A stretch of 64,000 bases of DNA from Escherichia coli (GCF_001677475.2 NZ_CP015229.1), one strand, 5' to 3'. Shown: positions 30,819 through 63,655, numbered from the stretch's first letter. Numbers and translations are program-made. The notes: a model not told the origin generated them from the sequence alone.

Positions 30819-30870
30819 TAGCATGCTTCCAGTTTTCTCAGTCAGAGACTGAGCGTTAATCGAAATTCGG

Positions 30871-37297: not shown

Positions 37298-37728
37298 TTA
37301 TCACTTACTGGCGGCTCATACTGAGCTGGTTAATGCTGTGCACACACAAACAAGCAATTCCATTTGTAATGTGCCTCCCTGGCAGTTTCATCCGGAACCC
37401 GGACGAAAGTAAAAATGCATATGAGTTGCACTAAAAAAGCGACTCACATTGTTCCGTTATAATGCCTGAAGTAGATCACAGAATATATCTTCAGGGATCG
37501 CATATCTATTAAGTTACTCACTCTTTTCTATTTATGACATGCGCGTGTTTGTATAAATGTAAATGTGAGTCCTTGTTCCACTCTCGTGCAGCATCGCTGG
37601 TCATACGCGAACACGTACAAACAGCAATGGTGAGGCGGCATCAAGAGCAGGGATCCGTCATTTATCCAAGCATTTTACCCCAAAAACCTTTTATTTATAA
37701 GGGTCATTGCGAATTATCTGATGCAAAG

Positions 37729-37756
37729 TTATGTTATGTTATGTTATGTTATGTTA
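37729..37756. repeat. Pentanucleotide microsatellite (ATGTT)x5 in the lrhA-alaA intergenic region
   Basis: Read directly from the sequence: agtt atgtt atgtt atgtt atgtt atgtt agg. Confidence 0.9.
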
Positions 37757-61599: not shown

Positions 61600-61695
61600 G
61601 CAATGCGTGTCGGATGCGGCGTAAACGCCTTATCCGACCTACGGTTCTACCCCTGCGTAGGCCTGATAAGACGCGCCAGCATCGCATCAGGCAAG
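61600..61695. repeat. REP/BIME cluster between dedD and cvpA
   Basis: gtcggatgcggcgtaaacgccttatccgacctacg and gcctgataagacgcgccagcatcgcatcaggc are close matches to REP consensus units in opposite orientation. Confidence 0.8.
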
Positions 61696-61701
61696 ACCGT
61701 A

Positions 61702-62364
61702 TTAATTCGGCGTATAGCCCATTACCACGCCACTTAAGCCAGAAAGTTGCTTCAACTCACCCAGCGAACCTTTCAGCTTATCTTTCGAGGCATCCGGCCC
61801 AACCAGAATACGGGTAATTTTACCCTGCACTGGCGTGGATGGCGACGTATAAACCCGATAACCGGCACCGCGCAGCTTACCGACAATCTCATTCACTTTA
61901 TCGGCATTTTTCAGCGCACCCAGTTGCACAACATAGGCTTTACCCGTCGGTGCAGCTTTTTCTTCCACGACCGGCTTCGGTTCTGGCTTCGGCGCAGGTG
62001 GTGCTTCAACCTTTGGTTTAGGCGGCTCCACCGGTTTCGGCTTCGGTGGGGCGACCGGTGCAGGTTCCGGTTCAAACTCGGTGTTATTGGCTGCAATAGT
62101 GGCCGGATCGAGCGACGGTGCTGCGGCATCACCTGCCCGCACCTCTTCCGCTGCGCCTTCCGGCGGCTGCGTCGGCAACGCCTGGGTGGCGGCTGGCATC
62201 ATATCAGGCTCATCGCGATCGCCCGCTTTTGGAACCAGCGGGATAGCCGCAAACTCATCCTGATAATGTTTTTTCTGCCCGTCCAGAAGCCCTGGAAGTA
62301 CAATCACCCCCAGCGCCACCAGCACGATCGTGCCCACTAACCGATTCTGAAACTTACTTGCCAC
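61702..62364 (-). CDS. dedD: Cell division protein DedD (SPOR domain)
   Basis: Track ORF begins at a TTG (62382); the known 220-aa protein begins (M)ASKFQNRLVGTIVLVALGVIVLPG... from GTG 62364, which overlaps the folC 3' end by 11 nt. Pro/Lys-rich linker and C-terminal SPOR region. Confidence 0.9.
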   Translation of the reverse strand: MASKFQNRLVGTIVLVALGVIVLPGLLDGQKKHYQDEFAAIPLVPKAGDRDEPDMMPAATQALPTQPPEGAAEEVRAGDAAAPSLDPATIAANNTEFEPEPAPVAPPKPKPVEPPKPKVEAPPAPKPEPKPVVEEKAAPTGKAYVVQLGALKNADKVNEIVGKLRGAGYRVYTSPSTPVQGKITRILVGPDASKDKLKGSLGELKQLSGLSGVVMGYTPN

Positions 62365-63655
62365 CGCTTCTCCTCGCGTCAATCACTTCCATGACATGTG
62401 CGACCGTGTGGAAAGAACCACACACCAGCACGGTGTCTTCCGCTTTAGCGTCCGCCATTGCGGCATCCCATGCCTGCGCAACGCTATCAAATGATTTGCC
62501 GTTACCCAAATGCTCAAGCAGTTGTTCTGCCGTGGCACCGCGCGGCCCTTCCAGTGGCGCACAATACCAGTCATCAACCACGCTTTTCAACCAGGCCAGA
62601 GTTCCGGCAATATCTTTATCATGTAGCATACCGATAACCGCCAGCACGCGCCCGTTTTTCGGTAGCGCTTTCATACGCCCGGTGAGATATTCCGCCGCAT
62701 GTGGATTATGCGCGACATCAAAAATAACGCGAGGCGACTCGCTCACAATCTGGAAACGTCCCGGCAAAATTGCGCTGGCAATCCCGTCGCGAATGGCAGT
62801 TTCACTGACCTCCAGCCCGCTGGCACGCAGTGCCGCCAGCGCCGTTGCGGCATTCGGTTGTGGGACAAGCGGCAACGGCAGGTTTTCCAGCGTGCCGTGA
62901 GCATCGCTAAACGCCCAGTCATGATCGGTGACGGAATAGTTCCACTCAACGCCCCGACGTTGTAACAGTGCACCTTTTTCCTGCGCCACATCAGCAATGG
63001 TAGAAGGCATTTCCGGCTCACCGACAATTGCCGGTTTTTCGCTGCGAAAGATGCCTGCTTTCTCGCGACCAATGCTTTCGCGATCTGGCCCCAGCCAGTC
63101 AGTATGATCCAGCGCAATGCTGGTCACCACAGCCACATCAGCATCGACAATATTGGTGGCATCCAGACGACCACCCAGCCCCACTTCCAGAATTACCACA
63201 TCAAGTTGCGCCTGTTTAAACAGCCACAGAGCCGACAACGTGCCGTATTCAAAATAGGTCAGGGAAATATCACCGCGTGCCGATTCAATCTCAGCAAAAG
63301 AGGCGGTGTGAGCCGATTCAATCTCAGCAAAAGAGGCGGTGTGAGCCGATTCCGGCAATTCCTGGCCCTGCACACGAACGCGCTCGGTATAACGCACCAG
63401 ATGAGGCGAACTGTAGACGCCCACTTTGTACCCTGCCACCATCAGAATCGACTCCAGCGTACGGCAGGTGGTGCCTTTGCCATTCGTACCCGCAACGGTA
63501 AACACAAATGGCGCTGGTTTCAGAACGCCAAGACGCGCCGCGACCTGGCTCACGCGCTCAAGGCCGAGATCGATAGTTTTACTGTGCAGGTTTTCCAGAT
63601 AAGAAAGCCACGAAGCCAAAGGCGACGCGGCTTGAGGTGTGCGTTTGATAATCAT
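62354..63655 (-). CDS. folC: Dihydrofolate synthase / folylpolyglutamate synthase FolC, carrying an 11-aa in-frame tandem duplication
   Basis: 433-aa ORF MIIKRTPQAASPLASWLSYLENLHSKTIDLGLERV... matching FolC except for a duplicated SAHTASFAEIE block; K-12 FolC is 422 aa from memory. Confidence 0.93.
   Translation of the reverse strand: MIIKRTPQAASPLASWLSYLENLHSKTIDLGLERVSQVAARLGVLKPAPFVFTVAGTNGKGTTCRTLESILMVAGYKVGVYSSPHLVRYTERVRVQGQELPESAHTASFAEIESAHTASFAEIESARGDISLTYFEYGTLSALWLFKQAQLDVVILEVGLGGRLDATNIVDADVAVVTSIALDHTDWLGPDRESIGREKAGIFRSEKPAIVGEPEMPSTIADVAQEKGALLQRRGVEWNYSVTDHDWAFSDAHGTLENLPLPLVPQPNAATALAALRASGLEVSETAIRDGIASAILPGRFQIVSESPRVIFDVAHNPHAAEYLTGRMKALPKNGRVLAVIGMLHDKDIAGTLAWLKSVVDDWYCAPLEGPRGATAEQLLEHLGNGKSFDSVAQAWDAAMADAKAEDTVLVCGSFHTVAHVMEVIDARRSGGK
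63279..63344. repeat. Perfect 33-bp direct tandem duplication (2 copies) inside folC
   Basis: The unit gccgattcaatctcagcaaaagaggcggtgtga occurs twice back to back in the sequence; boundaries are approximate to within 1-2 nt because of flanking microhomology (gccgattc). Confidence 0.9.

Follow-up and report, generated by a model that had tools for sequence, protein, structure and literature searches.

An in-frame 33-bp tandem duplication in folC of one Escherichia coli clone repeats most of a conserved helix

Results

The window analyzed here, a 64,000-nucleotide stretch of Escherichia coli DNA (GCF_001677475.2, NZ_CP015229.1), carries the arn, men, nuo, lrhA, alaA, ackA-pta, purF, folC, and accD genes and is collinear with E. 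coli from position 1 to 64000. Near its end, at 62354-63655 on the minus strand, lies folC, a coding sequence of 433 codons plus a stop that specifies the bifunctional dihydrofolate synthase/folylpolyglutamate synthase and is flanked upstream by accD and downstream by dedD, cvpA, and purF, the arrangement seen in other E. coli. Within this gene, Tandem Repeats Finder (TRF) detected an array at 63279-63352 with a period of 33, 2.2 copies, 100% matches, 0 indels, and a score of 148. As given by TRF and the direct sequence, and read on the plus strand, the unit is GCCGATTCAATCTCAGCAAAAGAGGCGGTGTGA. In the phase used by TRF and by an earlier sequence-only reading of this DNA, the first copy spans 63279-63311 and the second, identical copy spans 63312-63344; TRF and the raw sequence place the two head to tail and directly adjoining, with no sequence between them. 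They are followed at 63345-63352 by an 8-bp microhomology, GCCGATTC, which corresponds to the first 8 bases of a third unit and also opens each of the copies (63279-63286 and 63312-63319). In the protein phase, the duplication appears as codons 103-113 (SAHTASFAEIE; 63317-63349, minus strand) followed by the same 11 residues at codons 114-124 (63284-63316, minus strand). The sequence-only reading had described a perfect, in-frame 33-bp tandem duplication in folC, and TRF, the direct sequence, and the list of open reading frames all agree with it.

The probability of 41 consecutive matches at one lag is about 2e-25 per position, and the expectation for such an array over the window and 500 lags is about 7e-18; thus, the folC array is not a chance match. 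One other tandem repeat scoring 50 or more was found in the 64-kb window, a pentanucleotide run. As separate observations on repeat length, a GTTAT microsatellite in the lrhA-alaA intergenic region (37728-37756) has five full units in the window and two in strain PI7, constituting a second slippage-type length difference in the window, and an 87-bp dedD-cvpA intergenic stretch is present in GCA_002226635.1 (L128 5020-5288) as four tandem copies at a spacing of about 91 bp and in the window (61608-61694) as one copy.

By every sequence test applied, the predicted 433-amino-acid product belongs to the FolC family (Mur-ligase superfamily). The open reading frame scored 849.9 bits on the NCBIfam equivalog NF008101 (cutoff, 360), with the match falling into two stretches broken exactly at the duplication, and the product scored 382 bits on TIGR01499 (cutoff, 162.65). 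Its best PDB match in a phmmer search was E. coli FolC (1W78/1W7K; E = 3e-276), which is 422 amino acids long and contains a single SAHTASFAEIE copy. The sequence-only reading had taken the reference to be 422 residues long and had named alignment to reference FolC as a check, and it was right on the length as well as on the copy number. Compared with 1W78, the window protein has one 11-residue insertion and the substitutions L37Q, A73V, and N275T. The 433-residue form keeps the P-loop GTNGKG along with every other residue that is invariant in the FolC family; in a 145-sequence family alignment, G56, T57, N58, K60, P84, F135, E136, E157, D165, H184, and K199 (433-residue numbering) fill invariant columns.

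Comparison with folC from other E. coli genomes, also proposed in the sequence-only reading, set the window allele apart, as the duplication was found in 0 of 5,425 complete genomes of E. coli in RefSeq. When a 271-bp stretch spanning the site was used as the query, 5,425 of 5,426 such genomes were matched, and the best-ranked matches all fell into two pieces and were short of one unit. With a 20-kb query, the matched span of the record was shorter than the query by exactly 33 bp. When folC was collapsed to a single copy and used as the query, at least 80% of the gene was covered in 5,425 of 5,425 genomes, and the best matches listed aligned as one piece of 1,269 nt. A pattern specific to the junction had 0 matches in the GTDB representatives (one genome for each of 100,044 species) and 0 matches in 241 million metagenome records. 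The literature search returned no paper describing a tandem folC duplication in E. coli; the 433-residue protein had already been deposited, annotated as FolC.

FolC haplotypes were sought in a public protein collection by exact look-up of hypothesized protein sequences. The contig counts obtained from it refer to the matches listed (24 blocks per look-up), and its "similar places" are grouped by neighboring proteins without regard to DNA identity. The window allele, which combines the duplication with Val73, was present on at least 14 contigs, the duplication with Ala73 on at least 8, and the single-copy form with Ala73 on at least 24. Exact look-up in the same collection returned no single-copy form with Val73 (the collapsed window allele), no three-copy form, and no K-12 allele bearing the duplication. 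Codon 73 is GTG (Val) in the window (63437-63439, minus strand) and GCG (Ala) in the intermediate haplotype, which has the duplication, as well as in the single-copy sister. The two haplotypes with the duplication are identical by descent; they share the identical duplication, with 1 mismatch in 3,302 bp, and A73V is the sole difference between them. Ala occupies position 73 in 78 of 144 family sequences, with Val outside the six commonest residues. Among the single-copy alleles on record, A73V was found in none.

Accessions with the exact 433-residue protein include ANO90106.1, EFI6950691.1, EKA1086287.1, and ELW6972691.1. The first of these is encoded on a 5,498,453-bp chromosome and belongs to the same accession series as nuoF (ANO90074) and truA (ANO90109), and over 4,647 bp the independent assembly GCA_016118665.1 matches the window with 100% identity. 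Over 21.3 kb, the single-copy, Ala73 sister GCA_019141475.1 differs from a duplication genome by the duplication and four SNPs, namely, usg E170D, one synonymous change in usg, folC A73V, and N65H in an epimerase. The truA allele of the clone occurs on at least 49 contigs and its nuoF allele on at least 45, and about 22 of the roughly 50 sampled contigs of the clone carry the duplication; the duplication clade of at least 22 contigs stands beside a single-copy sister group of about 22 to 29. The folC duplication is real and inherited, with support from several independent samples, and has a single origin in one rare E. coli clone, in which the order of events was single copy, then duplication, then A73V on the duplication background.

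Across the duplication site, the sister GCA_019141475.1 reads CGCGT-GCCGATTC-25 nt-GCCGATTC-CGGCAA, and strain RX24, an unrelated E. coli, has the same two GCCGATTC repeats, 33 bp apart, around the unit. The substrate for such a duplication is therefore not confined to this clone. The sequence-only reading had suggested replication slippage at this microhomology, and the repeats that bracket the unit in both single-copy genomes support it: the duplication is the exact product expected of slipped mispairing between the two 8-bp repeats. Tandem duplications with 5 to 8 bp of microhomology at their ends have been described as a class of mutation (PMC8639346). Judged on sequence, the folC change qualifies as a microhomology-mediated tandem duplication (MTD); the slippage step itself is what we infer. 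At codons 104 and 110, synonymous variants peculiar to the lineage are found in both copies, and therefore the duplication post-dates these variants. The event had also been called recent, which holds insofar as it is younger than the lineage's own synonymous changes, but it dates back far enough for a clade to have inherited it and for A73V to have followed. The junction gives rise to neither a promoter-like nor a terminator-like site.

In an AlphaFold2 model of the collapsed allele, residues 102-116 form a helix (pLDDT 98), of which the duplicated unit makes up 11 of 15 residues. The duplication thus lies in a conserved alpha-helix and not in a surface loop, which the sequence-only reading had considered its probable site. 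Conservation lies on one face of this helix, with D102 in 109 of 144 sequences, F109 in 130, I or V at position 112 in 141, and R116 in 134. The segment from S83-P-H85 to T122-x-F-E125, which contains it, is 43 residues long in 119 of 119 Enterobacterales/Orbales species representatives and 54 residues long in the window FolC. The R92-F124 spacing is 31 residues in 127 of 144 more distant FolC representatives, and the few longer sequences have their extra residues after the helix, beside R116, and none within it.

The AlphaFold2 model of the 433-residue form has an overall pLDDT of 95.3 and a helix at 109-127, and its confidence falls only in the block 101-110 (69, versus 98 in the collapsed control). 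Foldseek aligned this predicted structure to 1W78 with a TM score of 0.97 and an rmsd of 1.3 Å, and the two-domain FPGS fold is kept in the prediction. The family alignment puts the conserved F109 and R116 on the second copy, as F120 and R127, and, taken together with the model, this indicates that the second copy most likely sits at the native helix position. The first copy is modelled as a lower-confidence coil (100-108) and a 4-residue N-terminal extension of the helix. Eleven residues correspond to about three helical turns, and the hydrophobic stripe, being roughly in phase after the repeat, may help tolerance. The helix end lies 6 to 8 residues ahead of the invariant F124/E125, the former of which reportedly stacks on the substrate pterin in E. 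coli FolC. The pocket side of the helix is unchanged in the AlphaFold2 model; AlphaFold2 is poor at predicting the cost of insertions.

Discussion

We consider it probable that the window carries a genuine, vertically inherited folC allele that arose by slippage a single time, keeps the fold and a working enzyme, and is tolerated as a near-neutral change. folC is essential in E. coli, and this essentiality, together with the intact allele in at least 22 contigs, suggests that the activity of the 433-residue form is retained. The expectation in the sequence-only reading that the insertion must be tolerated agrees with the inheritance of the allele, and near-neutrality of the duplication is what we infer from the evidence weighed below. 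The duplication reveals no new system or mechanism and is probably best described as an unusual, tolerated folC allele of one clone.

A series of steps can be proposed for its origin and accommodation. Replication slippage between the two 8-bp GCCGATTC repeats, 33 bp apart, would have produced the tandem duplication once, in one clone, and would thereby have repeated residues 103-113, which belong to helix 102-116 of the N-terminal ATPase domain. The native position would be taken by one copy, most likely the second, which would keep the F109/I112/R116 contacts as well as the link to the T122-x-F124-E125 substrate-pocket motif, and the other would be extruded at the helix N terminus, part of it as a short extension of the helix and part as a flexible stretch. 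Enough activity would remain in the enzyme for growth, and the allele would have persisted in a sub-clade in which A73V then appeared, making the window the derived form.

Short perfect tandem repeats are a known site of assembler errors, and the sequence-only reading had raised the possibility of an assembly or sequencing artefact, which would mean that the genome is truly single copy. However, the same 66-bp structure is found in at least 22 contigs from different samples, the carriers include a finished 5.5-Mb chromosome, a third-party assembly, and drafts from several samples, and a 33-bp unit lies well inside one short read and requires no guessing by assemblers. In addition, two haplotypes that differ at codon 73 share the identical duplication. 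The independent samples and the intermediate haplotype both speak against an artefact, which we regard as extremely improbable. Only marginally more credible, and still very unlikely, is early pseudogenization, in which FolC function would have been lost or badly impaired and the strains would obtain reduced folates or end products in another way. The insertion does break a conserved, length-invariant helix, and destabilization would be compatible with the AlphaFold2 model, but the frame is intact, all of the invariant catalytic residues are kept, and the contigs, numbering at least 22, show no further disabling change, the sole later one being a conservative Ala-to-Val substitution. The isolates are evidently culturable, and E. 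coli has no folate uptake, which, along with the essentiality of folC, argues further against impairment.

More can be said for selection, acting either on the duplication itself (e.g., through sulfonamide/trimethoprim exposure, polyglutamate chain length, or feedback inhibition) or on A73V as compensation for a mildly deleterious duplication. Both derived folC changes alter the protein and followed one another on one background, and the duplicated helix ends close ahead of the invariant F124/E125. Since the helix sequence is conserved and the length of the segment is invariant in all 119 species representatives, complete neutrality would be somewhat surprising, and A73V, rare in the family and present solely on the duplication background, would likewise be in keeping with an initial cost to fitness and its subsequent compensation. 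Tandem repeats such as this one usually collapse with ease, and the lack of any recorded Val73 revertant with one copy could mean that the duplication is favored; the absence of a Val73 single-copy protein from the collection is itself weak evidence against frequent successful reversion. Precedents for adaptive changes of this type are the ftsI duplications (PMC6970295) and the pneumococcal folP insertions (PMC3886935). Unlike in ftsI and folP, however, there is a single origin and no convergence across 5,425 complete genomes, 119 species representatives, and the metagenome scan, and the duplication clade is no larger than its single-copy sister group. One of the four SNPs in 21.3 kb falls in folC, which does not amount to an excess, given that at least one would fall there with a probability of about 0.22, and the AlphaFold2 model leaves the pocket side of the helix as it was. 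Moreover, FolC is not known to be directly targeted by sulfonamides or trimethoprim in E. coli. That the change in folC is adaptive or was compensated is possible but unsupported, and we judge it unlikely. Rather less likely again is a specific form of it, in which the non-neutral duplication changes FolC substrate handling and shifts antifolate susceptibility or folate homeostasis and A73V is a selected second-site adjustment. Substrate handling would here include, for example, the use of dihydropteroate versus tetrahydrofolate, polyglutamate chain length, or inhibition by accumulated dihydrofolate. The effect on polyglutamylation or antifolate susceptibility put forward in the sequence-only reading is speculation.

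The near-neutral, inherited allele that we favor can be set against several known cases. It shares with E. coli FolC (1W78, 1W7K; NF008101) the gene, the accD-folC-dedD locus, the invariant residues, the P-loop, and the predicted fold (TM, 0.97), and it differs from 1W78 in having 433 rather than 422 residues, with 11 residues of helix 102-116 present twice. With the MTDs of Dan et al. 2021 (PMC8639346) it has in common that the copies adjoin head to tail, without a spacer, and that the ancestral unit was bounded by a short direct repeat, of 8 bp in folC compared with 5 to 8 bp in the MTDs. MTDs have also been found fixed in natural isolates, whereas those with reversible phenotypes in a screen were frameshifting, subclonal, and rapidly reverting (PMC8639346). 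In contrast to the latter, the folC duplication is in frame, affects an essential gene, and is stable in a clade, with no revertant on record.

The 12-nt duplications in ftsI, encoding PBP3 (YRIN, YRIK, YRIP, and YTIP), resemble the folC case as short in-frame tandem duplications in an essential E. coli enzyme with a secondary substitution in the same gene, which in folC is A73V. The ftsI duplications carry fixed secondary substitutions that are thought to offset cost or add resistance; furthermore, they lie beside the drug-binding site, arose several times, have a demonstrated MIC effect, and reached many lineages through recombination under selection by beta-lactams (PMC6970295). The folC duplication, unlike these, is 33 nt long, has a single origin, and occurs in one clone only. 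Insertions of 3 to 6 bp in folP, the dihydropteroate synthase gene of pneumococci, give sulfamethoxazole resistance; these add 1 or 2 residues to the sulfonamide-binding loop of the direct target and are recurrent, proven resistance determinants (PMC3886935). They have in common with folC a tolerated, repeat-type, in-frame insertion in an enzyme of the folate pathway, but FolC is the next enzyme in that pathway and not the sulfonamide target, and a whole helix segment is repeated in it. Neither the recurrence nor the spread among lineages that marks resistance-type duplications was found for folC in complete genomes, GTDB, the metagenomes, or as a duplication on a K-12-type allele.

The folC allele provides a natural case in which an essential, highly conserved enzyme takes up a duplication of most of an alpha-helix with a buried face, and for which near-identical genomes preserve each stage, from the ancestor through the duplication to the substitution that followed. 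Because the three forms exist in such genomes, simple allele swaps would be possible for examining insertion tolerance, compensation, and FolC function or antifolate response. Should the duplication be non-neutral after all, the three haplotypes would constitute a ready-made evolutionary series of helix-duplication uptake. The allele can also be used as a clone-specific marker, and it illustrates that a change in the length of an essential gene is not necessarily an assembly error.

Several observations concern the wider window and its relatives. The window is 1.4 to 2.7% diverged from the nearest of the 5,425 complete RefSeq E. coli genomes, with best RefSeq identities of 98.1%, 98.5%, and 98.6% for three segments and 97.4% for folC, and the clone appears to be without a close relative among finished RefSeq genomes. 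E. albertii and two divergent GTDB "E. coli" representatives match the window less closely (87 to 95%) than E. coli itself does. The two representatives, SCPM-O-B-8794 and E69, are labelled Escherichia coli in GTDB, have about 91 to 92% identity to the window in the folC region, and are much further from it than any complete RefSeq E. coli genome is; they are probably mislabelled or a separate Escherichia species. Within folC, 18 of the 34 nucleotide differences between the window and RX24 fall in codons 125-166 (63170-63290), all of them synonymous, which suggests a mosaic (recombined) segment inside the gene. Elsewhere in the window, the sole Rfam match above the gathering score was the nuoG RNA motif RF01748 (50.3 bits; 30826-30868, minus strand), which sits at the 5' end of nuoG, at the nuoF-nuoG junction, as expected for E. 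coli.
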